From an uncultured Gemmatimonadota bacterium (GTDB lineage: Bacteria; JAAXHH01; JABIQT01), in the NCBI GenBank assembly GCA_964470965.1, contig CAYYIS010000005.1, positions 88,057 through 152,056 on the forward strand: DNA of 64,000 nucleotides, given 5' to 3'. The notes below the pieces were generated by a model, which was not told the origin of the DNA, made no database searches, and saw only the letters and a program-made list of their open reading frames with translations. Shown piece by piece: positions 26,829-47,310 of this stretch. The translations under genes and the position numbers were made by a program. Each line of letters begins with the position of its first letter. Position 1 is the first letter of the stretch.

Positions 26829-29800
26829 CTATTTCAACAACAGCATCTTGCGTGCTTTGCTGAACTCACCGGCTTCGATGCGGTATACGTAGATGCCGCT
26901 GGCAGTCGCCCCCCCGCGTTGGCTCATACCGTTCCAAGAAACCTCATGGAACCCGGCCGCCATGGCCTCATCGTTCAGCAGACGGACCACCTCCTGGCCG
27001 AGTATGTTGTAGACGATCAGCGAGACTTTGGTCGGATTCGGAAGGTCGAAGCGAATCGTAGTGGCCGGATTGAACGGGTTCGGCGCATTCTGATTCAGCG
27101 CGAACGTACTCGGCGCCCCTACACGCAGGCTGATTGGACCGAAACGCCGCATCTCGCCAAGGGCGCTTACCGATTCGATCATGTAGAAGTACCGCTGGTT
27201 CACCTGTACCGCGCCATCCTGGAATTCAAACATGTCGTTTCCAGTGATGAGCTCATCCGTAAGCCGCTCGAAGCCACCGTCGCGGTTCAGACTCCGCAGC
27301 ACATGGAAGCCCGAAAGCGCCGGATCCGGCGTGCCGATAGACCAGGTGACGATCACGACACCTCGATCGGACTCGGCCGCCATGGTAGCCAGAGTTACCG
27401 AGGTCGGCGTGGCAGCGGAGGCCACGAACGACTGACCCGCAGACCACTCGCCGGCAAACGACCCGTCGCTGGCTGTCGAACGCCAGTAATAAGTTACACC
27501 GTCGCTCAATGCCGTGCTGTCCGGCTGGCCGAGATCGAGCACTTGCCAGTTGGTCGGATTGCCGGTCGTGCCTTCGTCAACGCCTTCCCTGGAAGCGATG
27601 ACGCTGGTGAAGCCCGCATCGGTCGCCACCTGGAACGTGTACGTCAGCGTGGCCCGGGACGGATCCCCCGACACGGCTGTGGCATTGGCCACAACCAGAA
27701 CAGGTTTGAGAGAAACCGTATCACCCGTCGCCGGCGTGGTGGCGGTAGGCGCAGTGGCCACCTGTGAGGTTCCGGGCGTCACCGCGCTTGTGCTCGTGGC
27801 AGAGGTGCCCACGTTGCCGGCGTTGTCTATGGCCGTCACGGTGTATGTGTACGTGGTGTCGTTGGTGGCCGTCGGATCCAGCAGTTCCACCTCAGTCACA
27901 TTGGTGGCGATCGTGGTGCTGTTCCGAGTAATGTTGTAACCCATGATCCCGGACGCGTCCGTACTGGCATCCCAGCGTAACAGCACCGCACCACTGCCCG
28001 GAACCGCCGTTGCGGTGGCGGGAGGCGCAGGTTCGGTCAGATCCACATCGGCCGGCGTCGTCACACTGTCCAGATCACTCTTGGCCTGCGGCCGCGGTAC
28101 GCTCTGATCCAGGACGTTCTCCGAACCTACCTGGAAATAGTACGTGCGTCCCAATTCCAGCCCCGTCAACGTTACCGAATGCGAGGTTGCACCAGTCTGG
28201 GTTCCGGTTGTCACCTGGGTCGACAGATCGGACAGCGTGTCGTAATCTACGAAGCTGCTGGCCAGTTTATCGGTGGCCCAGGTGAAAGTGACCGTCGCCG
28301 TGGAGTCCGGTTGGGTGGACGTGGACGTGGCCACGTCAGACACTGCCGGAGTGGCCACGTCGGGTGTGGCCGACGTGGTGAACGTGAATGTGCCACTGGT
28401 ACTCGGTCCGTTATCTGTAACATCGGTGGAGGATACCTTGTAGAAGTACTGCGTACTCGCGCTAAGACCGGTCAGGGTCACTTGATGGTCGGTGACGATA
28501 GCCAAATCGGACGCGGTCGTTATCAGGCTGTCCGCGTTGGTTCCGAACTGCACATCCGAATCGGCGCCTTCGTCGGTGGTCCAGGCGATAATGGCCCTGT
28601 CATCCGACGGTGCGGAAGAGATAGAGGCATCGTCGATGACCGGCGGCGTTGCATCCGCGCTGGCTACCGTGAGTCCCACTGCCTGAGCGCTGGTGGTCGG
28701 TCCGTTGTTGCTCGGATCGATCGACGACACAGTGAAGTCATACGAGGTGTTCGGAGTCAGGTTGCTCAGAGTAAGCTGATGCAGGGTCACCTGATCCGAA
28801 CTGGTAGTGCTCTCGTTGAGGTTGCCACCGATGCCAAAGTCCACCTGGCTGGTCGACAGTTCATCCGTCTCCCACTGGATCACGAGTTGGTTGTCCGTCT
28901 GCGCGACCAAGGACGGCCCGTTCAGGATGATCGGCGCCTGTGTATCAGGCTGTGTGTTGGTTGTGAAGCGCCCGTTGGATCCCGGCACCTGCACGATACC
29001 GGTGATAAACAGCTTGCCGCCGCTGACCACGGGCTTCGCCGTACTGAATTGCGTTTCCGGCGGCCAGATTAGGAACCGTCCGTCCGGCGCCTGAGAGGTG
29101 ATGACCACCAGATACTGTCCGCCCGCGATGAGGCCCGGCAATACGACCCGATGGTTTTTGGTAAAGTCGTCACTGCCCCGGACAAATGCATCATCGAGGT
29201 TAAACGTTCCGGTTCCCGTCGAATCCAACTGAAAGTACGCGAACCCGTTCGACGGTATGTTGGTACGCCAGCGGAACACCACCCGCTCGTCCGACTTGTA
29301 GCCCACTGACGGCGCTCTTGTAAAGCGAAGGGGCGCCACCCGTCCGGACTGCTTCGTCCTGAACCAGCCGGTACGGCTGACGGCCGACTGACCGTTGGAG
29401 CGTGTGGCTTTGACGAAATAGCTATACCTTGTTTCAGGCTTGAGATTAGTCAGAATCGCCGTCGGGCTGGTCGAAGGATCCGAGACCGTTTCGGACAATG
29501 TGTCCGTGGAATCTGCCTCCCAGTAAAAAGCCTCCAGCTGGACCGGGAAGCTTGAGACGATCGAGATGAGCGCGGTCGTGTCCGTTGTGGCGAAGTCATC
29601 CACCTTCCTCACACGGAAGACCGGCGGCAGTGTATCGATGGTCGCCCGCGTGAGGAACGAGATGGTATCGCTGGATACCGTCTGGCTGCCGGTAGCACTG
29701 AACACCACCTGATACCGTTTGCCCGCGATAAGGCCGGATAGTGTGATAAAATGGCTCTTCTTTTTTTTGTTATCTTCGACAAGTTGAGTAAGTGTTCCTG

Positions 29801-32015
29801 CGCCTACCGTGTCGAAGTTGGCCACCACCGTGGTTCGCCGGTCCGTCCGCATGAGAAATCCGGCGCTTTTGTCTGATCGTTCCGTAAGCCTCGGAAAGAC
29901 CGCGAAGACCGGTGGTGCCAGATCCGCAATGCCGCGTGTGCGAAACGAATCTACAGCAGAGGTGAACGTCCGGCCGAAGGGATCTTCGGCGTGTATCTGG
30001 AAATAGTAGGTCGTAGCCCGGGACAGCCCGGAAAGAACCAGAGTATGGTTCTGAACACCCAGGGAGTCCGCTTCTTCTTCTACCGTTTCAGATAACGAAT
30101 CGCTTGCGGTGCCGTACGTCAAGACTGTGTTGGTCGCACCGCTAGTACGCCAGGCGATCGTGGCGTACGTGGTGTCCGGCTCCACAACCGGCCCCGCGAC
30201 GATGACCGCCTGGCGGGGCGCTGGAATGTCGTTTTGATTTATACCCACGATATCCGACAGATGAGTCACCGTGACAACCAATTCCTGTGAATCCGGATTG
30301 TATTGGGTAAATATGCCTTCCTGAGTAGGATGGCCGTCCTCTTCCAGGAACACCAGCGCCAGGTCGGAAGGATCGGCGCCGGAGAATCCCGAATTGTTGA
30401 GTAAGTCTGCTGAAGCGCCTGCCGGAAACTGGAAAATTAATGGTGAGCCATCCCGAAAATCGAAGCGGTCAAACATCACCCCGTCTTTCTCGATCCTGAG
30501 ATTGATGTGAAAGAACGTATCAATCGTGTCGCCTTCAACAACGATGGGTGTGCTCCTCGGTTTACTCTGGTCGGTCACATCGAGGTTCTTGATAGTGGCA
30601 TGCAACGTGACACCGTCCGCCTCATTTATGTTAACATCCGGGATATTGATGGCCATATTCGCGAGACCATCCATGAACGGTTGAACACGGTCACCGGTGA
30701 ATAGTCCATTGGCGCCGCCTGAGAAGCCGCTCAGATCTTTGGAACCAAACGTGTTGAGAATACCCAGGGGGATCGTACTGGTATCGATCGGTATCGTAAC
30801 AGCCACAGTCACAGAATCTCCAAGGAAAGGGATCCTCGCCGTAGCATCCAGAGACAGGATAACCCGAATTTCCCTTGGATCAAGCGTCTGGATCGGTTTG
30901 ATACGCCGGATACGGTGGTTGTTCGCATCGGCCACATAGATATTGCCGGCTGGACCGATGATCAGACCTGCAGGTCCATTCAAAGACGCCAGGGCACCGG
31001 GGCCATTGGCGAAATCGGCCAGACCGGAACCGGCGACAGTCGATACTTCGTTGTCTACCAGGTTGAGTTTACGGATTCTGTTGTCCTCATAATCCGAAAT
31101 CACCAGGTTGTTTCCGGAGATGTCGATACCGGCTGGTGCAGCGAAAAGTGCGTCTGTGGTTGCGCCGTCGGCAAAGCCGGAATCACTGCCGGCAATGGTA
31201 GTGACATCGTACGTGTTACGGTCAATTTTTTTGATCTTGTGGGCACCAGCATCGGTGAGGTACAGGTACCGCCCTTTAGAAGCCAGACTGATAGGATCCA
31301 TGAACTGCGCAGCCGTTCCAACGCCGTCGGTATCACCCTGTTGCATTCCGCCTGCTGCGGTTGTGACTTCCGTGGTTTCCAGGTTAATTTTCCTGATGCT
31401 GTAGTTGGAGGCGTCGGCGACGTACAGAGAGTCGTCTACAATCACCATACCCAACGGTTCATTAAATTGGGCATCTGCACCCGTGCCGTCAGCAGATCCA
31501 GCTACGCCAGAACCAGCCAGGGTAGTGACATTGGCTGTGTTCAGGTTGATTTTCCGGATTACATGCCCCGCTTCCTCGGACACGTACGCGTGGGCTCCCT
31601 GTATTTCGATAAACGCGGGCGTATTGAACGAAGCGGCTGTCCCGATACCGTCGATGGTCTCAGCCTGCCCGTCTCCCGCGAGGGTGGTAACCTCCCCCGT
31701 AATCAGGTTCACCGTACGGATCCGATGGTTTCCGCTATCCGCCACGTACAGATTATTACCGCGAACGGCAACGTCTGTCGGCTCGTCGAAGAGGGCGCTC
31801 AGCGGATCGTTGGAATCCCGATAATCCGGGTCGCCCGACCCCGCAAGAGTGGATACATCACCAGACGCCACATCCACCGACACCGGCAAGGCGGACCCGT
31901 ATGCACTGGATCCAACGTTCGCGGATTCGGTAACATTGCCTGGCTGGGCAGAAACCTTGGTCCCGGATATCGCCGCAAAATAGATCAAAAATCCAATTAC
32001 TACATACTTTTTCAT
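26829..32015 (-). CDS. Giant secreted cell-surface protein: NHL-repeat beta-propeller + multiple fibronectin-III-like domains + T9SS C-terminal sorting domain
   Basis: About 1728 aa counted from MKKYVVIGFLIYFAAISGTKVSA (signal peptide; AGGAGG RBS 8 nt upstream of the ATG at 32015). At least 6 NHL repeats (YVADSGNHRIR-type). Long Thr/Ser-rich FN3-like region. C-terminus LNQNAPNPFNPATTIRFDLP...VYNILGQ...GIYVYRIEAG...KMLLLK matches the Por-secretion tail (TIGR04183-like). Confidence 0.8.
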   Translation of the reverse strand: MKKYVVIGFLIYFAAISGTKVSAQPGNVTESANVGSSAYGSALPVSVDVASGDVSTLAGSGDPDYRDSNDPLSALFDEPTDVAVRGNNLYVADSGNHRIRTVNLITGEVTTLAGDGQAETIDGIGTAASFNTPAFIEIQGAHAYVSEEAGHVIRKINLNTANVTTLAGSGVAGSADGTGADAQFNEPLGMVIVDDSLYVADASNYSIRKINLETTEVTTAAGGMQQGDTDGVGTAAQFMDPISLASKGRYLYLTDAGAHKIKKIDRNTYDVTTIAGSDSGFADGATTDALFAAPAGIDISGNNLVISDYEDNRIRKLNLVDNEVSTVAGSGLADFANGPGALASLNGPAGLIIGPAGNIYVADANNHRIRRIKPIQTLDPREIRVILSLDATARIPFLGDSVTVAVTIPIDTSTIPLGILNTFGSKDLSGFSGGANGLFTGDRVQPFMDGLANMAINIPDVNINEADGVTLHATIKNLDVTDQSKPRSTPIVVEGDTIDTFFHINLRIEKDGVMFDRFDFRDGSPLIFQFPAGASADLLNNSGFSGADPSDLALVFLEEDGHPTQEGIFTQYNPDSQELVVTVTHLSDIVGINQNDIPAPRQAVIVAGPVVEPDTTYATIAWRTSGATNTVLTYGTASDSLSETVEEEADSLGVQNHTLVLSGLSRATTYYFQIHAEDPFGRTFTSAVDSFRTRGIADLAPPVFAVFPRLTERSDKSAGFLMRTDRRTTVVANFDTVGAGTLTQLVEDNKKKKSHFITLSGLIAGKRYQVVFSATGSQTVSSDTISFLTRATIDTLPPVFRVRKVDDFATTDTTALISIVSSFPVQLEAFYWEADSTDTLSETVSDPSTSPTAILTNLKPETRYSYFVKATRSNGQSAVSRTGWFRTKQSGRVAPLRFTRAPSVGYKSDERVVFRWRTNIPSNGFAYFQLDSTGTGTFNLDDAFVRGSDDFTKNHRVVLPGLIAGGQYLVVITSQAPDGRFLIWPPETQFSTAKPVVSGGKLFITGIVQVPGSNGRFTTNTQPDTQAPIILNGPSLVAQTDNQLVIQWETDELSTSQVDFGIGGNLNESTTSSDQVTLHQLTLSNLTPNTSYDFTVSSIDPSNNGPTTSAQAVGLTVASADATPPVIDDASISSAPSDDRAIIAWTTDEGADSDVQFGTNADSLITTASDLAIVTDHQVTLTGLSASTQYFYKVSSTDVTDNGPSTSGTFTFTTSATPDVATPAVSDVATSTSTQPDSTATVTFTWATDKLASSFVDYDTLSDLSTQVTTGTQTGATSHSVTLTGLELGRTYYFQVGSENVLDQSVPRPQAKSDLDSVTTPADVDLTEPAPPATATAVPGSGAVLLRWDASTDASGIMGYNITRNSTTIATNVTEVELLDPTATNDTTYTYTVTAIDNAGNVGTSATSTSAVTPGTSQVATAPTATTPATGDTVSLKPVLVVANATAVSGDPSRATLTYTFQVATDAGFTSVIASREGVDEGTTGNPTNWQVLDLGQPDSTALSDGVTYYWRSTASDGSFAGEWSAGQSFVASAATPTSVTLATMAAESDRGVVIVTWSIGTPDPALSGFHVLRSLNRDGGFERLTDELITGNDMFEFQDGAVQVNQRYFYMIESVSALGEMRRFGPISLRVGAPSTFALNQNAPNPFNPATTIRFDLPNPTKVSLIVYNILGQEVVRLLNDEAMAAGFHEVSWNGMSQRGGATASGIYVYRIEAGEFSKARKMLLLK

Positions 32016-32458
32016 ACCGTCCTCCTGAGAATGAGCACCGTTCTCTTTTAACTGGTAGGATGTACCTGGGTACACCCTACGCCCAAGTCAGATACAGAGT
32101 CGGTTTTTATAACAAATTGCTTTTTGTGCAAAATCTCCAAATTTCTCCATTACACCACCGGCCGCCGGATTTACATGGTAAACGACGGTAAAGAATATTG
32201 GGGGGCGTTATTTTTCTGGCTTTGACATAAATATAACCAGACACTACCTCTGTCAACGGGTGATTTAATTCCATTCTCAATAGAATACGAAAGAAAGCTC
32301 CTTCCATAGGTCCGACACGAATTCATCTGTAGGTAAATTACGAATTACAGCGATTGCCCAAAATGATCGGCATCACACGACCCCAGGTTATTTCGAGGGA
32401 CAATTCGTGTGAAACAGGTATGCCGAAAAAAATCACGCCTTTTTTGATGTATTCTTTC

Positions 32459-32486
32459 TTGACTTCTATGTACTTTGAATTAATAT
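32459..32486 (+). promoter_or_regulatory. Sigma70-like promoter of the molybdoenzyme operon (TTGACT-16 nt-TAATAT)
   Basis: TTGACT at 32459-32464 and TAATAT at 32481-32486, followed immediately by the repeat array. Confidence 0.45.
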
Positions 32487-32566: not shown

Positions 32567-32686
32567 CTCCGTTAGAAAAACACAAAGATACAGGGTAGGC
32601 TGGATCTCCTGATCGGCGGGCACCTGTTCATGGTTCCGGTACACGGCTCAGCGACCAGCCCAACCCCAACAAAGGAGAAGACTCTC

Positions 32687-33562
32687 TTGCAAGCACTTGA
32701 GTATGCTACACCGCAAAGTGTATCCGACGCGGTGGGACTGCTGAATGAAAACGGCGTCAACGCCCTTGTCTTGGCCGGCGGAACCGACGTCATCGTACAG
32801 GTTCGAGAAGGCCGCAGGCCTGCCGATCTGGTGGTCGATATCAAACATATACCGGATGTCAACGAACTCTCGTATCATCCGTCGGACGGACTGCACATCG
32901 GCGCGGCCGTACCCTGTTATCGAATTTACGGAGATGAAGCGATCGCAAAGGCGTATTCCGGATTGGTAGATTCGGCCTCACTGATCGGAGGTACGGCCAT
33001 CCAGGGCCGTGCGTCCCTGGGCGGCAACCTTTGCAACGCTTCCCCCGCTGCAGATTCCATCCCGGCGTTGATTGCCTACGGCGCCGTATGCACCATAGCC
33101 GGACCAAACGGCTCTAGGCAGGTAGCGGTGGAAGATTTCTGCACCGGTCCGGGAAGAACCGTTCTGGGGAAGGGCGAATTCCTCGTTTCGTTTGACATTC
33201 CAGCGCCGGAAGCCAATGCAGGCTGTTATTATTTGAGGTTCATACCCCGTAATGAAATGGACATCGCGGTTGTCGGGGTTGGAGCGAAAGTGGTGCTAAG
33301 CGATGACCATTGCCGGTTCCAATCAGCCCGGATCGCAGTCGGCGCGGTGGCGCCGACCCCTCTGTTCGTACGGGAAGCCGGCGACGGGCTGGCTGGAAAA
33401 GCGGTATCCGCCGAAGTGATTCAGGAGGCGAGTGAACTCGCACGGGGTGCGGCGCGGCCGATCAGTGATATGCGCGGCACAGCGGAATACCGGACCCATC
33501 TCACCGGTGTATTGACCAAACGCGCCATCCAGGGCGCCGTGCAAAGAGCGAAGGAGTCTTAA
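32687..33562 (+). CDS. Xanthine dehydrogenase family molybdoenzyme, FAD-binding (medium) subunit (CoxM/XdhA-like)
   Basis: FAD-binding domain LAGGTDVIVQ. CO-dehydrogenase-flavoprotein C-terminal domain. Start set at in-frame TTG 32687 with AAGGAG 9 nt upstream; the ORF-track ATG 32630 adds 19 non-conserved residues. Confidence 0.8.
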   Translation: MQALEYATPQSVSDAVGLLNENGVNALVLAGGTDVIVQVREGRRPADLVVDIKHIPDVNELSYHPSDGLHIGAAVPCYRIYGDEAIAKAYSGLVDSASLIGGTAIQGRASLGGNLCNASPAADSIPALIAYGAVCTIAGPNGSRQVAVEDFCTGPGRTVLGKGEFLVSFDIPAPEANAGCYYLRFIPRNEMDIAVVGVGAKVVLSDDHCRFQSARIAVGAVAPTPLFVREAGDGLAGKAVSAEVIQEASELARGAARPISDMRGTAEYRTHLTGVLTKRAIQGAVQRAKES

Positions 33563-33565
33563 TCG

Positions 33566-34042
33566 ATGCCCAGTAAAGTACATGTACAGGCCACGATCAA
33601 CAGCGAAGAGGTGGAGTTCCTCTGTGAAACACGCCAGAGCCTGCTGGAAGTCCTGCGGGACGTGCTTGGATTTACCGGTTCCAAAGAAGGCTGCAACAAC
33701 GGAAACTGCGGAGCCTGCAGTGTCATACTCGATGGACGTCTGGTAAATTCATGCCTGGTGTTCGGTTTTGAAGTCCAGGGATGTGATATCCAGACCATAG
33801 AAGGCATCGGTTCACCCGAAGATTTGCATCCGCTTCAGCAGCAGTTCCTCGAGCATGCGGCGCTGCAGTGCGGTATCTGCACGCCCGGGTTCATCGTGGC
33901 TGCGAAAGCGCTGCTGGACCGGAATCCGGATCCGACCGAAGCCGAGGTACGCAACTGGCTGGCTGGCAACCTGTGCCGCTGCACAGGCTACGACAAAATC
34001 GTCCGCGCGGTTGTGGATGCGGCAAAGGTATCTCAGACTTAA
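33566..34042 (+). CDS. Xanthine dehydrogenase family (2Fe-2S)-binding small subunit (CoxS-like)
   Basis: 158 aa. Plant-type ferredoxin Cys cluster CNNGNCGACS and second cluster CGICTPG...CRCTGY. Confidence 0.85.
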   Translation: MPSKVHVQATINSEEVEFLCETRQSLLEVLRDVLGFTGSKEGCNNGNCGACSVILDGRLVNSCLVFGFEVQGCDIQTIEGIGSPEDLHPLQQQFLEHAALQCGICTPGFIVAAKALLDRNPDPTEAEVRNWLAGNLCRCTGYDKIVRAVVDAAKVSQT

Positions 34043-34063: not shown

Positions 34064-36337
34064 GTGTCTACGAACGGATACAAAGTCATAGGGACGCGAC
34101 CGATCCGCCACGACGGAGTCGATAAGGTGACCGGCCGTGCCCTGTACGGCGCGGACATCCGGCTAACCGGTATGCTGCACGGTAAAATCCTGCGCAGTCC
34201 CCACGCCCACGCCCGTATAAAGAATATCGATACAAGCAAGGCCGAGGCGTTGCCCGGTGTAAAAGCAGTTGCTACGGCTGCGGACCTTCCACAGGTCGCC
34301 GACAAAATCGCCGATCTGGGCGAGGCCATTGTGAACCTGCGTGACGCAAGCAATAACGTACTGGCCTACGGAAAAGTTCTGTACAAAGGCCATGCAGTCG
34401 CAGGCGTAGCCGCCACGAATCCCCACATCGCTGAAGAAGCGCTTGGACTGATAGACGTATCATATGAAGTGCTGCCCCATGTCACCGGGGTGCGCGAAGC
34501 CATGAAGGACGATGCGCCGATCCTGCATGAAGATATGAAGATGACCGAAATGGGTGAAGAAACCGATAAAATCAGTAATATCGCCAGCCATTTCCAGCAC
34601 AAACAGGGGGATCCCGAAAAGGGATTTTCCGAGGCGGATGTGGTGATAGAACGTGAATTCGACACGGCGACGGTCCATCAGGGTTATATCGAACCTCACA
34701 ATGCGACCGCCGTGTGGAATGAAGAAGGCCACCTGACTATTTATACAAGTACGCAGGGTGCATTCGCGGTCCGCGATCAGCTCGTCGAAATTCTTCAGAT
34801 TCCCGTATCAAAAGTCAAAATTGTCCCCATGGAAATAGGCGGCGGTTTCGGTGGGAAGATTTCGGTCTACACCGATCCGGTGGCTGCAGTCCTGTCCAAA
34901 AAATCCGGTCATCCCGTCAAGACGACCATGGACCGAGACGAGGTGTTCGAAGGCACAGGACCAACGCCGGGTTCCTATCTCAAGATTAAAATGGGCGCTA
35001 CAAACGACGGACGCATCATCGCGGCGACCGCTTACATGGCTTATGAGGCCGGCGCCTATCCTGGCTCCCCGGTCGGCGCCGGCGCCGGTTGTATTCTGAC
35101 GCCCTACAACATCCCGAATGTGCAGATTGACGGTTATGACGTGTGCGTCAACAAACCCAAGACAAACGCGTACCGGGCACCGGGCGCTACGAATGCGGCG
35201 TTCGGTTCCGAGACGGTGGTGGATGAACTGGCGGAAACGATCGGCATGGATCCGTTGGAATTTCGTATCAAGAACGGCGTCAATGAAGGTCACCGCCGGC
35301 CCGATGGCCCCGAACATCCGAGGATCGGTTGCATCGAAACCACGGAAGCGGCGAAGCAGTCCAGTCACTACGCGTCGACACTTGAACCGTCTACCGACGG
35401 CAAGCTGCGTGGTCGTGGCGTTGCCTCCGGATACTGGTTCAACTTCAACGGTGGCCGGTCTGCTATCTCCGTCAGCGTCAACGATGATGGCACCATCAAT
35501 ATGATGGAGGGATCAACCGACATCGGCGGCAGCCGCGCCTCTATCGCCATGCAGCTCGCGGAGACGGTCGGTATGACCGCACAAGACATCAACCCACGCG
35601 TGGTCGACACCGATGCCATCGGCTATACGGATGTGACCGGCGGGAGCCGCACCACGTTCGGTACAGGCATTGCGGCCCATGCCACCGGCCAGGCCTTGAT
35701 CCGCGAAATGAAGGAGAGGGCATCACAGATCTGGGACGTGTCGGCGGACGCTATCGAATTCAAGGACGGGGTGTTCTCCTATAAGGATGATGACGAGAAA
35801 CGCGGTACCTTCAAGGAACTGGCCGGAAAAATCGGCGGGACCGGCGGGCCGCTTGTGGCCCAGGTGAGCACCAATCCGGACGGCTCCGGCGGCGGAGCGT
35901 TTGCCACTCACATCGTCGATGTGGAAGTGGATCCGGACACCGGCAAGGTGGATATCCTACGTTACACCGCAGTTCAGGATGTAGGCACAGCTATCCATCC
36001 GAGCTATGTGGAAGGACAGATGCAGGGCGGTGTGGTACAGGGTATTGGCTGGGCTTTGAACGAGGAGTATATCTACAACGATAACGGCGAGATGACCAAC
36101 GCCAGCTTCCTCGACTACCGCATGCCCACGACCCTCGATCTTCCCATGATCGAAACGATCATGGTGGAAGTACCCAACGTCAGCCATCCCTACGGTGTCC
36201 GTGGCGTCGGAGAAGTGCCTATCGTGCCGCCACCCGCGGCTATCGCCAATGCGATCTACCAGGCGACGGGAGTCCGCATGGTCGATCTGCCAATGTCACC
36301 GCCCCGCTTAACCGCGGAGATGGCGAACAAGGGGTAG
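34064..36337 (+). CDS. Xanthine dehydrogenase family molybdopterin-binding large subunit (substrate unknown; not form-I CODH)
   Basis: 757 aa. Aldehyde-oxidase/XDH a/b-hammerhead and Mo-binding domains. The active-site loop reads AYRAPGA rather than the AYxCSFR loop of CO dehydrogenase. Confidence 0.8.
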   Translation: MSTNGYKVIGTRPIRHDGVDKVTGRALYGADIRLTGMLHGKILRSPHAHARIKNIDTSKAEALPGVKAVATAADLPQVADKIADLGEAIVNLRDASNNVLAYGKVLYKGHAVAGVAATNPHIAEEALGLIDVSYEVLPHVTGVREAMKDDAPILHEDMKMTEMGEETDKISNIASHFQHKQGDPEKGFSEADVVIEREFDTATVHQGYIEPHNATAVWNEEGHLTIYTSTQGAFAVRDQLVEILQIPVSKVKIVPMEIGGGFGGKISVYTDPVAAVLSKKSGHPVKTTMDRDEVFEGTGPTPGSYLKIKMGATNDGRIIAATAYMAYEAGAYPGSPVGAGAGCILTPYNIPNVQIDGYDVCVNKPKTNAYRAPGATNAAFGSETVVDELAETIGMDPLEFRIKNGVNEGHRRPDGPEHPRIGCIETTEAAKQSSHYASTLEPSTDGKLRGRGVASGYWFNFNGGRSAISVSVNDDGTINMMEGSTDIGGSRASIAMQLAETVGMTAQDINPRVVDTDAIGYTDVTGGSRTTFGTGIAAHATGQALIREMKERASQIWDVSADAIEFKDGVFSYKDDDEKRGTFKELAGKIGGTGGPLVAQVSTNPDGSGGGAFATHIVDVEVDPDTGKVDILRYTAVQDVGTAIHPSYVEGQMQGGVVQGIGWALNEEYIYNDNGEMTNASFLDYRMPTTLDLPMIETIMVEVPNVSHPYGVRGVGEVPIVPPPAAIANAIYQATGVRMVDLPMSPPRLTAEMANKG

Positions 36338-36340
36338 GGT

Positions 36341-36610
36341 ATGCCCACCGTATGGATTCCATCCCTGATGCGCAATCTGACGGACGGGGTTGAGAAGATA
36401 AAACTCGACGCCGTATCGGTGGGTCAGATAGTGACGCAACTGGACGAGAAGTACCCGGGATTCAGAAAACGGATATGTGACGAACAGGAAGATCGCATCC
36501 GGCCAAACATCGCGATAATGGTCGACGGGCGTAACGTAAAAATGGGACTGCAGGAAAAGGTGGACCAAAACAGTGAGGTGCACTTCCTGCCAGCAATCAA
36601 GGGAGGGTAG
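36341..36610 (+). CDS. MoaD/ThiS-family ubiquitin-like sulfur-carrier protein (C-terminal Gly-Gly)
   Basis: 89 aa. Beta-grasp pattern and diagnostic C-terminus ...HFLPAIKGG followed by stop. Starts 4 nt after the large-subunit stop. Confidence 0.7.
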   Translation: MPTVWIPSLMRNLTDGVEKIKLDAVSVGQIVTQLDEKYPGFRKRICDEQEDRIRPNIAIMVDGRNVKMGLQEKVDQNSEVHFLPAIKGG

Positions 36611-36628
36611 GTTCCTCGCTTGTAAATG

Positions 36629-36669
36629 AAAGGCCGTTCCATATGACAATGGGACGGCCTTTTTATTTT
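36629..36669 (+). terminator. Rho-independent terminator of the molybdoenzyme-moaD operon
   Basis: 12-bp stem (AGGCCGTTCCAT / ATGGGACGGCCT, one G·U) with 6-nt loop, followed by TTTTTATTTT. Confidence 0.7.
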
Positions 36670-36927
36670 GGTGTATCCCGGTTCTATGTCAGTTTGTTCC
36701 GCACATTCCCAATCAGGATGCCGCTTTCAACATCGGCGGTGATCAACTCAATTAGATCCGCCCGGGCACTCCGACCTTCCCGGAAAACTGTTCCGGGAGC
36801 AAAAACGTTTTCAGCAGGAGTTTTTACTCCCTTGGATTGAACGAATTGGTTATTGGGTGTCCTTCTCTGCCGATGACTGACGAAGTGTCGATTGGGAATT
36901 ATCCAGGCGCCTGAAAAGACTCAGACG

Positions 36928-37512
36928 TTACACGTGTATCCGTTCGAGGATGGAATGCAGACGTTCGTAATCGTCTTTGAGCAGACGGGCGACCTCTTTG
37001 CCAGCCCGAACCAGATAGTTTCCGTTTTCACCACGAGCCAGATAGGCATTGCGGATGGCTGCAATGGTGAGCTCATCGGACGGGACCCTGGTCTGGTTAA
37101 AAATTGGGCGGAGGTAATGGGATCGGTCCGTGAAACTCGCAATCTCTTCCGCGGAACAGAAATGCACAAAGCTGTGGATTTTGGGCGGTTGAGGCGGCAG
37201 GGACTGGTAAATACCCGTGTCATCTTTGTAGCCGATGATTAGCGAGGTGAATTCTGTGCGTAAAAGTTCAAATATCTGAGGCTGTTCGAGGCGCAGTTCG
37301 TCCTCTGTCTTCCCGTACGCCGTGGGCCTCCGATTCGGCTCCATGCTCTGAGTGGCCACGCTGTATACGATCGCATAGACAATCGGATAGCTGTCTATCT
37401 TGACATAGGCCCCGAAGGGAGGCGCGCCGTGTAGCACGCGGCTCTCTGCCGTGAACTCAATCGTGTTACTCTCAATTACCTCTCCCACATGCGGTTGGCC
37501 CTGCTCAGCCAT
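36928..37512 (-). CDS. HerA N-terminal (HAS-barrel)-like protein lacking the ATPase domain; degenerate P-loop
   Basis: 194 aa. N-terminus VGEVIESNTIEFTAESRVLHGAPPFGAYVKIDSYPIVYAIVYSV follows the HerA HAS-barrel pattern ([IV]G.VI...T.E...ER.V..G.YV...V.AL[IV]). P.QPP...A.EE block matches the HerA PDIPPF...EDEE strand. ELTIAAIRNAYLARGENG sits where the HerA Walker A (AILAATGSGKS) would be, and the protein ends about 70 aa later. Recalled from memory of HerA; needs HMM confirmation. Confidence 0.45.
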   Translation of the reverse strand: MAEQGQPHVGEVIESNTIEFTAESRVLHGAPPFGAYVKIDSYPIVYAIVYSVATQSMEPNRRPTAYGKTEDELRLEQPQIFELLRTEFTSLIIGYKDDTGIYQSLPPQPPKIHSFVHFCSAEEIASFTDRSHYLRPIFNQTRVPSDELTIAAIRNAYLARGENGNYLVRAGKEVARLLKDDYERLHSILERIHV

Positions 37513-37533: not shown

Positions 37534-38721
37534 TTAAATCAACAATCTGCGTTTCGAAATATTCTTGCGCGATACTTCGGATCGGACACCACCGATGACG
37601 TATGAATCGCTTAATAAACGATAGAACAACTCCCGGTCGGCTCCTCGGACAACCGCTTTCTCATGGGCCTCGGACAGGACAATCGGATATCCCTTTCCTT
37701 TTTCCACCTGGTCGCACACCGTGGCATGAACAAGATCCAAGAGTTTCGAATCCTGGGCCACCCATTCGGGTATTTCCACTCGGGCCACTTCGAAGCCCAC
37801 ATTAACATAGAAGAAATAAATTCGATGACGACCATATTCCTTCAGTATTTCGGATGTACTGCGGAACAGCACGGAACGGTCTCCAGGATTGTGGAGCACC
37901 CGCCCGAAGAGCACGCGGTCCGTCAAGCCTTCGATCACGGTGCAGGGAGGCCTGTCCGGATGGAGCGTGTGCTGCGGGCAGGCGTCGCAGGCCGGGACCT
38001 CATCTTCGGGGCACAGCCCCACGCGCAGGGCGTTGACTACATCCGCACTGTTGGGACTGCTGATGTACCCGGCCACCGGAACCCCCGCGTCGGCAAACCG
38101 ATCGAAGGCGCCCATCGTCTCTTTTAGCATCGGAATTTTGAAGTCGTCCGGCTTTCCTTCCAGCGTCCAGTCGATCAGGGTTCCATCGGACATACCCACC
38201 GCTTTCGTACGTGAGTCGGGAATTTCGTCTATCAAATCCGCCAGTGTCGTCAATTCCATCACACCGCGCCGGATCCCCACAACTTCGGCATTGATAGGTA
38301 TTCGCTTGCCGCTCCATTCCACATACAAATCGTCTTCATTGAAAAACAAACTCGGCTTGCTGGCAAGGATAGGACGTTCTCTGGTGCCATAGTGAATTAC
38401 GATGGTTCCGATGTTTATGAGATAGCAGTTAGACACTTCATGGCGATCCGGAAATAGCTGAGAGCCGTCCGTCGCCAGCAGCGTGATCTGGGCCGGGCGT
38501 TCGGGACGTTGTCTATGAATCGTCATCGGTTCAAGTATTTCGCCCACCAGCCAGCCGGGTTTGCTGCGTCCAATCTTTTCAGCAAGGAATCGCCAGTCCA
38601 CTGTCCAGCGCCGGGCTTCCTGGTACGCCCTTTCCAGTTTATTTCCGGAAGCACGCTGCACGGAATGTTGCTCCCGGACCATGATGCTAATCTGCTGTTT
38701 TGTCGCTATGTGATCAAGCAT
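37534..38721 (-). CDS. NurA-like RNase-H-fold nuclease
   Basis: 395 aa. LLATDGSQ (first DGS motif) at about residue 95. Acidic E about 70 aa later. Second DG[ST] motif VGMSDGTLIDW. C-terminal His (SEAHEK). Spacing resembles the NurA D-E-D-H catalytic arrangement. No Walker motifs. 22 nt upstream of the HerA-N-like gene on the same strand. Confidence 0.45.
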   Translation of the reverse strand: MLDHIATKQQISIMVREQHSVQRASGNKLERAYQEARRWTVDWRFLAEKIGRSKPGWLVGEILEPMTIHRQRPERPAQITLLATDGSQLFPDRHEVSNCYLINIGTIVIHYGTRERPILASKPSLFFNEDDLYVEWSGKRIPINAEVVGIRRGVMELTTLADLIDEIPDSRTKAVGMSDGTLIDWTLEGKPDDFKIPMLKETMGAFDRFADAGVPVAGYISSPNSADVVNALRVGLCPEDEVPACDACPQHTLHPDRPPCTVIEGLTDRVLFGRVLHNPGDRSVLFRSTSEILKEYGRHRIYFFYVNVGFEVARVEIPEWVAQDSKLLDLVHATVCDQVEKGKGYPIVLSEAHEKAVVRGADRELFYRLLSDSYVIGGVRSEVSRKNISKRRLLI

Positions 38722-38978
38722 AGGCCTGCGCCGCCGTTCCGTATATGTGGGGTGTTATCGTCTTATGATACTACCTGACAGAAATTTCCAAAAGACCAAA
38801 CACCTTATAACTAAACATTTGTATCGTGGATGTCAAGGAATTTATGCCTGAGCTTCTGTCGCCCAGTGGGTTACGGTCCATTTCCTCCAGGGCATTTTGC
38901 ATTTCATTAGGGGCCGAAAGCGGTAGTTCCTGCTTGACAGTAAACGGACACGCACATACACTTACGCTACGGAAGGAG

Positions 38979-40448
38979 ATGCCTTTGAGCCAGGCCGATG
39001 ATGCGTCTTCGCATAACCAATGGAAAGGGCTGCTGCTGTGGCCTCTGGTCGTCGCTGTCTTGTTCGTACTGCCGTCCCTCAACGACGGTCTTGTGTCGGA
39101 CGATTATGAATTGATCGCAGAAGGCACCATCAGGACATCCGATCACATACTGGAGGCTTTGACAGAATCCGGTATGGCGGGGTTTTATCGTCCGGTTCCG
39201 AGACTTCTTCTGGGAATTAATCGGGCGATCCACGGTTTGCACCCGTTCGGCTACCATTTCATCAATGCGCTTGTACATGCGGCAGTGGTGATAGTCCTGG
39301 TGAAGCTGCTGTCCACGGTAACCGCAGGGACCGCCGTTCCGCTGATCGCCGGGGTGCTGTTCGCCGGGCATTTTGTGCATGTAGAACCGGTGTACTGGGT
39401 CTCTGCCCGAAACGAACTGCTGGCTGCCCTGCTGTACTTGGCTGCCCTATTGTGTATCACGCGAGAAGCGAAACGCTTAAGGATCGCGGCGCTTGCGGTT
39501 TTTTTTCTGGCGCTGCTCACGAAGGAGACAGCCGTTACCCTGCCGTTTACAGTGGTTCTGGTGACTATTTATAGGATAGGTGGGTCATATGCTGAGAGAA
39601 TCCGGTGTGGGTTGCGCTCCGGTCTGCCCTTCGCGGGTGTACTCGGTGTTTATGGGCTGTTGAGGTGGAGCGCTGGCGCCGACTGGCCCTGGTCCAGTCG
39701 GGGAGTCGGATTCGGTATCGACCCGTATCTGATCGTAAAAAACATCGAGCAATACACCGTGCAGCTTTTGGTGCCGGTCCGATCGCTTATGGACCTTCAA
39801 TCCATAGATACCTACGGCGCCGTAACTGCCGCCGTCCGTTCCGACGGTTCAGATGCCGGGATCTGGCCATGGTTGTTGCTCGGAGCAGTCCTGCTGATCG
39901 CCGGGATCTGGATAGCCATTCGGATCGGGGGGAATTCGGCTGCCGCCGGACTCGTTTTCACCGCCACAACCGCGCTGCCGTTCCTCTTTATGGATAACAC
40001 CGGACTCCGATATATGTATCTACCTTCTGCAGGATTTGTATTGACTGTCGCGGCCTGTCTGACCGGCCTGGCAGGCCGCTGGACCGACGCCACACAGGGT
40101 GAAGTGATTCAATGGTGGCTCCTTCGTGTCATTGTATGTATATTGCTGCTGTTATCATTGGAACAAACGCGCTGGTGGGATGAAGCTGGTAGGTTGTGCG
40201 CTTCGACGGTCGACCGTGTTCTGACTCATGCGGCAACCGTTCCGACCGGCACAGGGCTCTACGTATTCGATATACCGCGCCGGCTACACGGCGCCTATGT
40301 GTTTCATAACGGTTTCGAAGAGGCCGTTCGTATGAATAACCCCGGTAGTTCGCGTTCCATACTAGACGGTGAACGCATGCTGGAACAGGAAGGCGTCCTG
40401 CCGGATGGAATCATGATATTCCGGCTGAACGAGCCAGTAGCCAAATGA
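38979..40448 (+). CDS. Polytopic membrane protein, GT-C-fold glycosyltransferase-like (PMT/ArnT/TMTC-type N-terminal module)
   Basis: 10 or more TM helices. First periplasmic loop carries DDYE...FYRPV, reminiscent of the DD/DE + R-P motifs of the GT-C GT39/83 families. Start set at ATG 38979 / TTG 38985 after AAGGAG; the ORF-track start 38826 adds a non-hydrophobic extension. Confidence 0.5.
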   Translation: MPLSQADDASSHNQWKGLLLWPLVVAVLFVLPSLNDGLVSDDYELIAEGTIRTSDHILEALTESGMAGFYRPVPRLLLGINRAIHGLHPFGYHFINALVHAAVVIVLVKLLSTVTAGTAVPLIAGVLFAGHFVHVEPVYWVSARNELLAALLYLAALLCITREAKRLRIAALAVFFLALLTKETAVTLPFTVVLVTIYRIGGSYAERIRCGLRSGLPFAGVLGVYGLLRWSAGADWPWSSRGVGFGIDPYLIVKNIEQYTVQLLVPVRSLMDLQSIDTYGAVTAAVRSDGSDAGIWPWLLLGAVLLIAGIWIAIRIGGNSAAAGLVFTATTALPFLFMDNTGLRYMYLPSAGFVLTVAACLTGLAGRWTDATQGEVIQWWLLRVIVCILLLLSLEQTRWWDEAGRLCASTVDRVLTHAATVPTGTGLYVFDIPRRLHGAYVFHNGFEEAVRMNNPGSSRSILDGERMLEQEGVLPDGIMIFRLNEPVAK

Positions 40449-44739: not shown

Positions 44740-45629
44740 AGTGTCATACTCCTCGTAGGAACTATCTTGATTCCAATCCGCATCTTGTGCTATGGAGGTT
44801 ACCAATCAATTTACACACATCCCATCATACCCGCAAGGAAAATGTCGGTCCCGTTCTAACAGCTTGACTTACATCCGCCCGGGCCACTAACTTGTCAGAA
44901 CGTTCGAAACATTCCTCCTGATTCTTGATACAATCATCTACAGGCGCCCACAGACTCTTGATTGGGGGTTCCCCGGTAGAACTTGGATCGAAAAGAGATA
45001 TCCGGTCTGTACGCTTTGGAACGGCGATCGGCATGGCATAGATCGTGGCTGAAGAATAACGAATGCGGTTCGGTCATCAATTCGGTCATCAAACCCTTTG
45101 AGAAAACCCTCGCTATAGCCCATATGGCTATGACCACCGCTTCTTCCCCATGGCGGAAAAATCATTAGAAGCGGCGCGCGAACGCTTTCCGCAGCGCCGC
45201 ACCGGATCTGGCCTTCAACCGCCAGATAGACTGAATTCGGCGCCAGCACACGGCGTCGAGTAGAGGGGACCAACAAAACCTGGATAAGACCGTGGTAGTA
45301 ACGTTAGCGTCATGAGAAATCCCCTCGGTGGACTTGGCCTTCAGGATCGCGGCCACAAATGGGTTTGAGCGAATCCCTTCACACGGGTAGAGTGTCGCGA
45401 CCTAAAAAAGCTGCGATTGGTAAGACTATGGGATTTTGAAGTCGCGTGTTTGTATTTGAAATCAACATCTGATCCAGTTCCGGAATCTGCTTGACTTGAC
45501 GGCCTTCGCGTTTCACATTCCAAGGAAGCCGAAGCGCACAGGAATGCTTGTAATGATATGATACACCCTTAAATTACCCGACTGCCGAAACTGGAATACA
45601 GTCCGATAAAATCAGAATTGGAGGAACAA

Positions 45630-47276
45630 ATGGCAGAGCGTATCTCCGTGTTGTTGATCGAAGACAACCCGATCCATGCCCGATTGATTCAGAACTTACT
45701 GGAAGAATCAACTGCCTCCGTCTTTGATCTTATCTCGGCCGATCGCCTGTCCACAGGGATCGAGCGACTAGACTCCGGCAAAATCGATGTCGTTCTTCTG
45801 GACCTGGTACTGCCGGACAGCCAGGAGATAAACACGCTGGAGCAGGTCCGCGCCGCCGCACCCGAGGTGCCTATCGTCATCCTGACCAGTCTGGATGATG
45901 TAACATTAGCCGCCAAAGCCGTGGAAGAAGGTGCCCAAGATTTTCTGATAAAAACCGAGACCAACAGCCAGACCCTGACCCGATCCATACACTACGCCAT
46001 TGAACGCACCCGGGCACAGAAAGGGGAGTGGGACGCCACCATGTTCCGCCTTGCCCAGCAACAGTTTCTCAAGGCGGCTCAGCTGATGAATCTCGATGTA
46101 AACGTGCAGGAACGCTTGTTGTTCCCGCAGCGGACCCACATCGTGACATTTCCGTTCCGAAGGGATGAGTATGACCAGGTGGAAACGGTCTTCGGTTATC
46201 GCGTGCAGCACCTGCTGACCATGGGACCCACCAAGGGCGGTATCCGATACCATACCGACGTCAACCTCGGCGAAGTTTCAGCGTTAGCCATGTGGATGAC
46301 CTGGAAGTGCGCCCTGATGAACCTTCCCTTCGGTGGCGCCAAAGGAGGCGTTCGCATCGACCCAACCGGACTGTCCCGACGCGAACTGCAACGCCTCACC
46401 CGCCGTTACACATCCGAAATAATAGATATCATAGGACCCGACAAAGACATCCCGGCCCCTGACATGGGCACGGACGAACAGGTCATGGCCTGGCTGATGG
46501 ATACGTACAACCAACAGGTAGGTCATACGGTACCTGGAGTCGTCACCGGCAAGCCGGTGGTCCTTGGCGGATCTCTTGGACGCCGCGAGGCCACGGGTCG
46601 CGGTCTGGTGTACCTGGTCGAAGCGGCCGCGGAACGAACCGGACTGAACCTGAACGGCGCAACTGCCGTAGTGCAGGGCTTCGGAAACGTCGGAAGTAGT
46701 ACCGCGCGTTTTCTGGAGGAAGACGGCACAAAGATACTCGCAGTCAGCGACATGACGACCGGTATCTACAATCCCAACGGCCTATCGGTTCAATCCCTGC
46801 TCGACTACACTGCGGAGAATCGGTTTCTGGAAGGTTATCCGGAAGGTGATGCGATCTCCAATGAAGATCTGCTGGAGTTGGAATGCGATGTACTGGCGCC
46901 CGCGGCACTGCAGAACCAGATCACATCAGCAAATGCAGACCGGGTTAAATGCAAGATCCTCGCTGAAGGCGCCAACGGTCCGACAACGCTGGAGGCGGAT
47001 GAAGTGCTCAACGAAAATGGTGTCTTCATCCTCCCCGATGTGCTGGGCAATGCGGGTGGTGTGACCGTGTCGTATTTCGAGTGGGTTCAGGATACCCAGA
47101 ATTACATGTGGACGCTGAAGGAAATCAACGATCGCCTGCATGCCATTCTTCTGGACGCGTTTGAACGTACCATACACCGAGCGGAGAGCACCGGTTTCGA
47201 CACGCGCACCTCAGCGTTGATCGAAGGTATCCAACGGGTAACCGAAGCCAAACTGCTACGCGGCGTGTTCCCTTAG
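45630..47276 (+). CDS. Response-regulator receiver domain fused to Glu/Leu/Phe/Val-type glutamate dehydrogenase
   Basis: N-terminal 120 aa canonical REC (acidic pair ED, phospho-acceptor Asp in VVLLDLVLPD, Thr in VILTS, Lys in LIKTE). Residues about 150-548 are an intact GDH (KGGIRYH, catalytic GGAKGG, NAD-binding QGFGNVGS). ATG 45630 is preceded by GGAGG; ORF-track TTG 45618 is in frame. Confidence 0.8.
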   Translation: MAERISVLLIEDNPIHARLIQNLLEESTASVFDLISADRLSTGIERLDSGKIDVVLLDLVLPDSQEINTLEQVRAAAPEVPIVILTSLDDVTLAAKAVEEGAQDFLIKTETNSQTLTRSIHYAIERTRAQKGEWDATMFRLAQQQFLKAAQLMNLDVNVQERLLFPQRTHIVTFPFRRDEYDQVETVFGYRVQHLLTMGPTKGGIRYHTDVNLGEVSALAMWMTWKCALMNLPFGGAKGGVRIDPTGLSRRELQRLTRRYTSEIIDIIGPDKDIPAPDMGTDEQVMAWLMDTYNQQVGHTVPGVVTGKPVVLGGSLGRREATGRGLVYLVEAAAERTGLNLNGATAVVQGFGNVGSSTARFLEEDGTKILAVSDMTTGIYNPNGLSVQSLLDYTAENRFLEGYPEGDAISNEDLLELECDVLAPAALQNQITSANADRVKCKILAEGANGPTTLEADEVLNENGVFILPDVLGNAGGVTVSYFEWVQDTQNYMWTLKEINDRLHAILLDAFERTIHRAESTGFDTRTSALIEGIQRVTEAKLLRGVFP

Positions 47277-47310
47277 ATCCACAATTTGATAAACAGGCCC
47301 AGGTGTATTT

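Follow-up and report, generated by a model that had tools for sequence, protein, structure and literature searches.

The locus analysed here lies in a 64-kb stretch of DNA (64,000 nucleotides (nt) of contig CAYYIS010000005.1 from an uncultured Gemmatimonadota bacterium; in the following 'the window'). It comprises the genes of a three-subunit molybdenum (Mo) hydroxylase of the xanthine dehydrogenase/carbon monoxide dehydrogenase (XDH/CODH) family and, directly downstream, a short gene that encodes an 89-amino-acid (aa) protein of the ThiS/MoaD superfamily. This small protein, in the following referred to as the carrier, and its association with the hydroxylase are the subject of the analysis. 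The features of the locus are, in window coordinates:

32170-32199: second candidate sigma-70-like promoter upstream of the gene for the flavin adenine dinucleotide (FAD) subunit (consensus scan)
32459..32486, + strand: possible sigma-70-like promoter upstream of the FAD-subunit gene, weak (consensus scan, 9/12 matches)
32630..33562, + strand: FAD-binding (medium) subunit of the XDH/CODH-family molybdenum hydroxylase (PF00941, 1.5e-41; PF03450, 1.2e-25)
33566..34042, + strand: two-[2Fe-2S] (small, FeS) subunit (PF01799, 8.6e-33; PF00111, 2.6e-07)
34064..36337, + strand: molybdopterin-binding (large, Mo) subunit (PF01315, PF02738, PF20256)
36341..36610, + strand: CysO-like ThiS/MoaD-family beta-grasp carrier, 89 aa, ending in Gly-Gly (GG) (PF02597, 31.4 bits, cutoff 22.5)
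36628..36672, + strand: predicted intrinsic terminator closing the four-gene operon (15-pair stem, 6-nt loop, T-run)

The three upstream genes were assigned to the hydroxylase by their Pfam domain sets, which are FAD_binding_5/CO_deh_flav_C, Fer2/Fer2_2 and Ald_Xan_dh_C/MoCoBD_1/MoCoBD_2, respectively. Because the spacers between the FAD and FeS genes and between the FeS and Mo genes measure only 3 and 21 nt, the natural reading of the sequence is that FAD, FeS, Mo and carrier genes form one operon. The open reading frame (ORF) of the Mo subunit ends with TAG, and three nucleotides (GGT) separate this stop from the ATG of the carrier gene, which begins 4 nt after the final stop base and shares the Mo-subunit frame by chance. 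A purine-rich AAGGGG is located just 5' of the ATG. The carrier ORF consists of 89 codons and a stop (MPTVWIPSLMRNLTDGVEKIKLDAVSVGQIVTQLDEKYPGFRKRICDEQEDRIRPNIAIMVDGRNVKMGLQEKVDQNSEVHFLPAIKGG); the protein begins with MPTVWIPSLMRNLTDG and ends in ...EVHFLPAIKGG*. The terminator hairpin (36628..36663) starts 18 bases past the carrier stop and is followed by TTTTTATTTT in the terminator scan. It has a folding energy of -27.3 kcal/mol (z = -4.5 versus dinucleotide shuffles), and none of 200 shuffles was equally stable. The number of promoter-like sites that the consensus scan found in the region did not exceed that in shuffled sequences. RNA genes were detected neither with Rfam at the gathering threshold nor with ARAGORN anywhere in the window, and therefore no riboswitch, such as a molybdenum cofactor (Moco) riboswitch, precedes the operon. 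A preliminary description of the window had placed the small ORF at 36341-36610, 4 nt behind the stop of the Mo-subunit gene, with an AIKGG end and a strong terminator, and had regarded it as the last gene of an XDH-family operon. All of these features were found as described, and the domain content of the three upstream genes and the predicted terminator are in line with the proposed operon.

The carrier matched PF02597 (ThiS) over residues 11-89 with 31.4 bits, compared to a gathering score of 22.5. Database searches yielded 89 homologues with E-values down to 3e-51, all of which contain PF02597; given these homologues and the conservation across phyla, the ORF represents a real gene. More specific NCBIfam models were missed: SAMP1 (NF041918) scored 45.3 with a cutoff of 60, Urm1_like (NF053661) 27.5 with a cutoff of 70 and archaeal-type MoaD (TIGR01687, moaD_arch) 44.9, just below its cutoff of 49.5. 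No bacterial MoaD equivalog was among the NCBIfam matches of the carrier. This indicates a member of the superfamily that lies outside the SAMP1, archaeal-type MoaD and Urm1-like families. In public annotation, the homologues are called 'MoaD/ThiS family protein' or 'molybdopterin synthase sulfur carrier subunit'.

An AlphaFold2 model based on 44 homologues (predicted local distance difference test (pLDDT) 89.4, predicted template modelling score (pTM) 0.80) shows the strand and helix order of a beta-grasp fold. All 20 Foldseek matches of this model in the PDB with E<=1e-3 are proteins of the ThiS/MoaD/SAMP/Urm1 type. CysO from M. tuberculosis (3dwg_C/3dwm_A) and A. orientalis (4n6e_B) ranked first, with template modelling (TM) scores of 0.87-0.89 at about 25% identity, followed by SAMP1, a Thermus MoaD-related protein and Urm1 (TM 0.70-0.80 for SAMP1 and Urm1). 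MoaD of E. coli, human and mycobacteria came last of the named groups (TM 0.64-0.68). A search of the PDB with the family profile also ranked CysO (4n6e_B, 4.3e-17; 3dwg_C, 1.7e-12) higher than any MoaD or SAMP entry, with the Thermus MoaD-related protein at 2e-08 and SAMP-type proteins between 1e-4 and 1e-2. Thus, judged by profile and predicted structure, the carrier is a ThiS/MoaD-superfamily protein with a beta-grasp fold and is closest to CysO, not to canonical MoaD. The profile and structure checks proposed in the preliminary description were both passed, with the PF02597 match and the confident beta-grasp model, and its ThiS/MoaD-type ubiquitin fold with C-terminal GG was confirmed. Its designation 'MoaD/ThiS-like' applies to the superfamily, but CysO proteins are the nearest relatives, and the MoaD, SAMP1 and Urm1 models remain below cutoff.

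Twelve positions are invariant across 44 aligned sequences (M1, P7, P39, G40, E79, H81, F82, L83, P84, A85, G88 and G89), and they include a fixed tail of the form E-x-H-F-L-P-A-x-x-G-G. As identity to the window protein ranges between 43 and 88% overall, the invariance of GG and of E-x-H-F-L-P-A points to selection on the C-terminal tail. CysO (M. tuberculosis Rv1335, PDB 3dwg/3dwm; Amycolatopsis orientalis, 4n6e) likewise is a beta-grasp protein of about 90 aa and shares with the carrier the N-terminal (M)xTVxIPxxxR strand and the LPA-x-x-GG ending. The family of the carrier differs from it by an invariant His at position -8 from the end (Thr in both CysO sequences) and by the residues that usually follow GG (see below). 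Furthermore, CysO is encoded together with cysM and mec and acts in cysteine synthesis, whereas the only conserved neighbours of the carrier gene are XDH-family subunit genes. We therefore regard the carrier as a new subfamily of a well-known superfamily.

The adjoining hydroxylase also differs from its described relatives. Among solved structures, the Mo subunit is closest to the alpha subunit of 4-hydroxybenzoyl-CoA reductase (1rm6, 6e-89), followed by CoxL, 6-hydroxypseudooxynicotine dehydrogenase and quinoline 2-oxidoreductase. All 13 NCBIfam matches of the Mo subunit were far under cutoff, the best being XdhA with 464 bits (cutoff 780) and HcrA with 454 bits (cutoff 995), and every NCBIfam equivalog was also under cutoff for the FAD subunit. 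The Mo-subunit sequence shows the segments ...RGVGEVP..., ...YTSTQGA... and ...NAYRAPGA.... It contains the Glu of R-G-x-G-E, which we take to be the catalytic base, and presumably the conserved Gln of S-T-Q. The corresponding loop reads AYRAPGA, whereas we take AYRCSFR to be the Cu-binding loop of true CO dehydrogenase. By its sequence, the enzyme is an XDH/CODH-family molybdenum hydroxylase outside the characterised assignments (XdhA, HcrA, CoxL, PaoC, PucD and others).

To describe the distribution of the carrier, we scanned one genome per species, which revealed at least 572 relatives. The best 80 of these were examined for taxonomy and belong to metagenome-assembled genomes (MAGs) labelled Gemmatimonadota, Latescibacterota, Poribacteria, Dehalococcoidia/SAR202 and other Chloroflexota, with one labelled Alphaproteobacteria. 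Six homologues with 43-69% identity were found at eight places with different flanks, and the gene order FAD-FeS-Mo-ThiS was present at seven of them, the eighth being a contig of 2 kb whose end lies just upstream of the carrier gene. In the coordinates of the related loci (L001-L090), the carrier gene is mostly located at about 10001-10270. A tblastn search with the subunits of the window was then applied to 88 loci. Eight were without a Mo-subunit gene, of which three are contig ends, leaving 85 testable loci. An orthologous Mo-subunit gene (55-88% identity) lies upstream of the carrier gene in 80 of these 85 loci (80/88 in total), and this pairing spans at least six phylum-level groups in unrelated flanks. 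The FAD and 2Fe-2S genes are usually also upstream, with identities of 45-76% and 68-90%, respectively. In 76 non-redundant loci, the carrier start follows the Mo stop at a distance of <=10 nt in 31, <=200 nt in 61 and >400 nt in 9 cases. The reverse look-up gave the same picture: starting from Mo orthologues in a Tectomicrobia MAG (71%) and in a Limnocylindria MAG (68%), a PF02597 gene was found immediately downstream in each case. The conservation of the small gene in orthologous operons, by which the preliminary description had proposed to judge its assignment, is thus borne out in both directions.

Pairwise distances of Mo subunits and carriers are correlated (Mantel r = 0.83, 0/999 permutations), which indicates that the two genes share their inheritance and evidently also moved between phyla as a pair. 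When the neighbouring ORFs were clustered, no cluster apart from the hydroxylase subunits was present in more than 22 of 89 loci. The clusters ranking next reflect lineage-specific synteny, namely DHDPS, alpha/beta-hydrolase and PIG-L in Dehalococcoidia, dUTPase, Wzz and Poly_export in Latescibacterota and Tex in the relatives of the window. In the SAR202/Dehalococcoidia set (seven loci) and in the Tectomicrobia locus L089, Mo and carrier genes are paired without FAD or FeS genes nearby. As the pair is kept where the other subunits are encoded elsewhere, the tightest bond of the carrier is to the Mo subunit. Based on these data, the carrier has become established as a fourth gene in one clade of three-subunit XDH-family hydroxylases.

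The same data bear on the simplest explanation for the gene, which is that it encodes a housekeeping MoaD or CysO that stands beside the operon by chance and has no enzyme-specific role. The archaeal-type MoaD model TIGR01687 is missed only narrowly, and one source labels a homologue as molybdopterin synthase sulfur carrier subunit. However, a housekeeping gene would not be carried along with a single enzyme, while here Mo and carrier genes remain neighbours in different phyla and in different flanks, and their proteins diverge in parallel; nor are there moa or cys genes nearby in the annotated related loci. We consider this explanation highly improbable.

The short spacer at the Mo gene has repeatedly taken up mobile or defence cargo, as seen from insertions at five loci (L010, L023, L025, L035 and L089). 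These comprise a pair of HEPN-type and nucleotidyltransferase genes, a 1243-aa SIR2-like protein, Schlafen/AlbA_2 and a transposase-like HTH_32 protein, and genes of these kinds occupy the wide gaps between Mo and carrier genes. The carrier gene persists despite such insertions, which separate it from the Mo gene. The inserted genes were also considered as maturation factors, and this was ruled out, since they are toxin-antitoxin, SIR2-like, Schlafen-like or transposase-like.

Subsequently, we searched for genes that could act together with the carrier. In the window, all ORFs of at least 150 aa and all ORFs of at least 80 aa in intergenic gaps were scanned. Among them, no ThiF/MoeB-type activating enzyme (E1), JAB/JAMM peptidase, MoaE, XdhC/CoxI, rhodanese or cysteine desulfurase was found, which for the E1 agrees with the preliminary description. 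MoaA and MoaC domains were absent from the window and from the annotated related loci. In the Pfam-annotated flanks of ten independent loci (L001-L008, L089 and L090), no E1, JAMM, MoaE, XdhC, rhodanese or desulfurase adjoins the module, and the sole Aminotran_5-type genes are partial ones at the margins (6-10 kb) of L002/L003 and L090. Furthermore, neither cysM (cysteine synthase dependent on pyridoxal phosphate (PLP)), mec (JAMM) nor moeZ occurs near the carrier gene in the window or in these flanks.

Unlinked E1 genes are usual in this superfamily. MoaD rarely adjoins MoeB (PMC1779556), and in mycobacteria one unlinked MoeZR thiocarboxylates MoaD1, MoaD2 and CysO (PMC3227635), so that CysO has its E1 encoded elsewhere, as the carrier would. 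The missing linked E1 is therefore no evidence against an activated carrier (PMC1779556, PMC3227635).

The preliminary description had further called it atypical that the small gene stands in place of XdhC. Many characterised XDH-family operons are without an XdhC-type gene in cis. The lack of XdhC is thus not unusual, and it is the presence of the carrier that is. A link to selenium-dependent hydroxylases was rejected, as the AIRS_C domain at the window end, a candidate for SelD, belongs to PurM and a SelA-family gene near some loci reflects lineage-specific synteny.

GG is invariant in every homologue examined, yet 70 of the 90 genomic homologues (78%) run on for 1-14 residues past it and only 20 end directly at GG. 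The additional residues are not conserved (A, S, AS, V, R, C, AW, IAESS, APTALPPTKGASLR and others). Such a tail is nearly always present in Poribacteria and is missing in the window copy and in two loci labelled SAR202. It follows that in most organisms either a peptidase exposes GG or the carboxylate goes unused.

A profile search gave 4686 matches at E<=1e-3 and 796 at E<=1e-10. The best 150 all share the core of about 87 aa, and none of these best 150 of the 4686 matches joins the carrier to an XDH subunit, E1, MoaE or JAMM. Many of the 'long' representatives look like frameshifted calls. Two longer proteins deserve mention. P0241 (L091 589-1707; 372 aa, on a single 2.3-kb JGI contig) has the carrier domain including GG ahead of an alpha/beta-hydrolase, and P0234 (291 aa) has it ahead of a multi-pass membrane domain. 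Their fusion partners have no homologue among the locus neighbours, and both proteins may be real ubiquitin-style fusion precursors or assembly errors.

Extensions past GG in 78% of the homologues are typical of processed precursors of ubiquitin-like (Ubl) proteins, as in the JAB-linked ThiS/MoaD proteins (PMC1779556). The carrier could accordingly be a covalent modifier in the style of SAMP, TtuB or Urm1, whose GG would be attached to lysines of the hydroxylase or of other proteins, and a JAMM peptidase encoded elsewhere would process or deconjugate it. The sub-threshold matches to the SAMP1 and Urm1-like models and the good structural matches to SAMP1 and Urm1 (TM 0.70-0.80) fit this idea, but NF041918 and NF053661 are well under cutoff. 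An exclusive linkage to one enzyme is unlike a general modifier, and no E1, E2 or JAMM gene was found in the window or any related locus. Protein modification thus appears distinctly unlikely. JAB-associated carriers of the QbsE/PdtH type and SAMP/TtuB resemble most carrier homologues in their residues past GG, but JAB-associated systems encode E1 and JAB peptidase beside the carrier (PMC1779556), and neither is linked here.

The activity of XDH-family enzymes depends on a terminal sulfido ligand, which is readily lost in air. By analogy with other hydroxylases of the xanthine oxidase (XO) family, the enzyme of the window is expected to need this ligand (PMC13653126). In XO-family enzymes it is added by a separate system, in R. 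capsulatus by XdhC and NifS4, and no repair of the desulfo-enzyme is known in bacteria (PMC13653126).

Our favoured reading is that the carrier is a CysO-like protein dedicated to the neighbouring hydroxylase and that its thiocarboxylate would supply sulfur to the Mo cofactor. We hold this reading tentatively, as its chances seem to be somewhat short of even. It is supported by CysO, which is a proven thiocarboxylate carrier and the nearest relative. An E1 of the MoeB/MoeZ type, encoded elsewhere in the genome, would adenylate the Gly-Gly of the carrier, and a rhodanese domain or the persulfide of a cysteine desulfurase would convert the adenylated GG into a thiocarboxylate. The flexible GG tail would then bring the sulfur to the Mo cofactor of the adjoining enzyme. 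In the homologues with residues past GG, a peptidase would first have to expose the glycines, while the window copy would need no processing.

Two targets of the sulfur can be envisaged. Slight preference is given to the terminal Mo=S ligand, which the carrier could serve at assembly or during re-sulfuration of the desulfo-enzyme. As this is the sole sulfur specific to the XDH family, it would explain the exclusive linkage to the Mo subunit. The most specific form of this idea, in which the carrier thiocarboxylate installs or re-installs the labile terminal sulfido directly on the cognate Mo centre and independently of XdhC, seems rather unlikely. The second option is the dithiolene sulfurs of molybdopterin, for which the carrier would have a dedicated MoaD-like role as proposed for AOR-linked MoaD. 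Several observations speak against this dithiolene variant. CysO cannot stand in for MoaD in Moco synthesis (PMC3227635, Table 1), TIGR01687 is below cutoff, and MoaE does not travel with the module in the annotated related loci. In addition, L004 contains a protein with Molybdopterin/Molydop_binding domains 6 kb away, which represents another molybdoenzyme, so that a general molybdopterin synthase would be needed in this genome anyway.

A number of points weigh against a sulfur carrier for the cofactor in either form. A thiocarboxylate that donates sulfur to Mo=S is not known. Neither the window nor the about 90 loci contain a linked gene for an E1, a sulfurtransferase or a peptidase, and a gene for XdhC may be present elsewhere in the genome. 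As judged from the sequences, the tails past GG in 70 of 90 homologues would block adenylation unless they are processed. Moreover, four loci from Gemmatimonadota/Latescibacterota (L018, L027, L037 and L045; 8000-10300) have the order FAD-FeS-carrier with no Mo gene within 10 kb. The Mo gene is cleanly gone there, with about 160 nt left between FeS and carrier genes, and the flanks are otherwise syntenic with the four-gene locus L006. Finally, L080 from Dehalococcoidia shows the order gamma-glutamyltranspeptidase-carrier-PIG-L-DHDPS-hydrolase and contains no XDH genes.

Some of these points would be accounted for if the protein were a non-catalytic fourth subunit or an assembly chaperone whose C-terminal carboxylate is never activated. 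In this case, the beta-grasp body and the E-x-H-F-L-P-A-x-x-G-G tail would dock on the Mo subunit and could, for example, plug or gate the substrate funnel or hold the apo-enzyme open for cofactor insertion. The best support comes from the variable post-GG residues, which are easily explained if the carboxylate is unused; the failure to find a linked E1 or peptidase in the window and related loci and the tight linkage and co-divergence with the Mo subunit are also consistent with such a role. A precedent for a beta-grasp protein as a plain subunit exists in TmoB of toluene mono-oxygenase (PMC1779556). On the other hand, the two glycines are invariant in all homologues examined, as is characteristic of carriers activated by an E1; the closest relatives are genuine sulfur carriers, and the gene outlives both insertions that break co-transcription and the loss of the adjacent Mo gene. 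A structural role of this kind is therefore considered unlikely.

The locus without XDH genes, L080, belongs to a wider pattern in Dehalococcoidia. In 12 loci of this group, a gene of the PIG-L/LmbE family (zinc deacetylase/amidase) overlaps the carrier stop by 4 nt. It is located at about 10264-10990 in L004/L029, L060, L063, L065, L075, L080 and others and is followed by DHDPS and alpha/beta-hydrolase genes. The arrangement with PIG-L and that of L080 may reflect a link to thiol metabolism or to the cleavage of the carrier C-terminus. It may be speculated that the carrier donates sulfur in small-molecule chemistry coupled to the hydroxylase, that is, to its substrate or product, or that it holds the substrate covalently on its C-terminus. 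The closest relatives do act on small molecules, as the pairs CysO/CysM and CysO/BexX give sulfur to cysteine and to the 2-thiosugar of BE-7585A, and the PIG-L/LmbE overlap and the gamma-glutamyltranspeptidase of L080 hint at thiol metabolism. However, the PIG-L link is limited to one lineage, and conservation with the module is restricted to the three hydroxylase subunits, with no PLP-dependent, adenylating or other acceptor enzyme among the conserved genes. Such a function is thus very unlikely.

For the favoured reading of a sulfur carrier dedicated to the hydroxylase, the closest precedent is AOR-linked MoaD, for which a ThiS/MoaD gene also stands strictly beside the gene of a pterin-cofactor oxidoreductase and is scattered over distant phyla as if mobile (PMC1779556). 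In this 'tungsten cofactor biosynthesis' neighbourhood, the protein was read as an enzyme-dedicated sulfur carrier by Iyer, Burroughs and Aravind in 2006 (PMC1779556). The two cases differ in that AOR is a tungsten bis-pterin enzyme and its carrier is MoaD-like, whereas the partner here belongs to the Mo mono-pterin XDH family and the carrier is CysO-like. Furthermore, AOR clusters often hold MoeB, MoaE and MoaA, none of which is linked to the carrier. The need that a sulfido donor would meet, a terminal sulfido ligand on the Mo cofactor of XDH-family enzymes, is the one served by XdhC/PaoD with NifS4, often encoded in the operon of the enzyme (PMC13653126). XdhC/PaoD is a Moco-binding chaperone that works with persulfide. 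The carrier, in contrast, is a predicted beta-grasp protein with a putative thiocarboxylate and shows no homology to it.

While the components of the module are familiar, their pairing, the breadth of its distribution and the tails past GG are undescribed in the searchable open-access literature. A ThiS/MoaD carrier fixed to the XDH family is not in the catalogues of Ubl neighbourhoods (PMC1779556, PMC2948915), which list AOR-MoaD, nor is the module in a 2026 review on how the sulfido ligand is inserted (PMC13653126). No account of it was found in the full-text literature as far as it is open access, and an earlier mention elsewhere is possible. The module adds a second class of enzyme-linked neighbourhood to the ThiS/MoaD catalogue, beside AOR-MoaD, and provides a concrete candidate for a second maturation route of XDH-family enzymes. 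If the carrier indeed donates the sulfido ligand, it would be the first bacterial repair system for desulfo-enzyme and would be widespread in aerobic marine and sponge-associated phyla. Given the tails past GG, most members would need C-terminal processing by a peptidase, unless the carboxylate is unused. Should the role in providing the cofactor sulfido fail, the module could still represent an enzyme-specific supply of molybdopterin, a new type of beta-grasp subunit or a target of bacterial Ubl conjugation. The host groups are abundant heterotrophs that are for the most part uncultured, and surveys often count their 'cox-like' genes.

Several other features of the window were observed. Two stretches of about 0.8 and 1.0 kb (44806-45617 and 24240-25280) contain no recognisable gene, as their ORFs of 82-130 aa are without Pfam match and no Rfam or tRNA match was obtained. 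A 754-aa ORF at 20407-22671 (+) matches neither Pfam nor NCBIfam. The 540-aa ORF at 38826-40448 (+) belongs to no Pfam family and has only a weak match to the AZOBR_p60025 family (cell-surface glycopolymer); it precedes a gene for a glycosyltransferase fused to a CoA_binding_3 domain.

Divergent from the hydroxylase operon, a gene at 26829-32075 (-) encodes a protein of 1748 aa that combines NHL repeats with fibronectin-III and purple-acid-phosphatase N-terminal domains and carries a FlgD-Ig-like domain at its C-terminus, and a 2389-aa relative occupies the same position in L001. Downstream of the operon, on the opposite strand, the gene for a NurA nuclease (37534-38721, -) is followed by that for a 193-aa protein (36928-37512, -), in which HerA is represented by the HAS-barrel alone, the ATPase domain being absent. 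As the syntenic locus L001 encodes this short protein too, the short form is no truncation artefact.

Finally, the region 45618-50292 (+) encodes a 552-aa glutamate dehydrogenase with an N-terminal receiver domain (Response_reg and ELFV_dehydrog) and, directly after it, a hybrid histidine kinase of 993 aa that contains two receiver domains as well as an Hpt domain. This domain arrangement suggests that the activity of the glutamate dehydrogenase is controlled by a phosphorelay.

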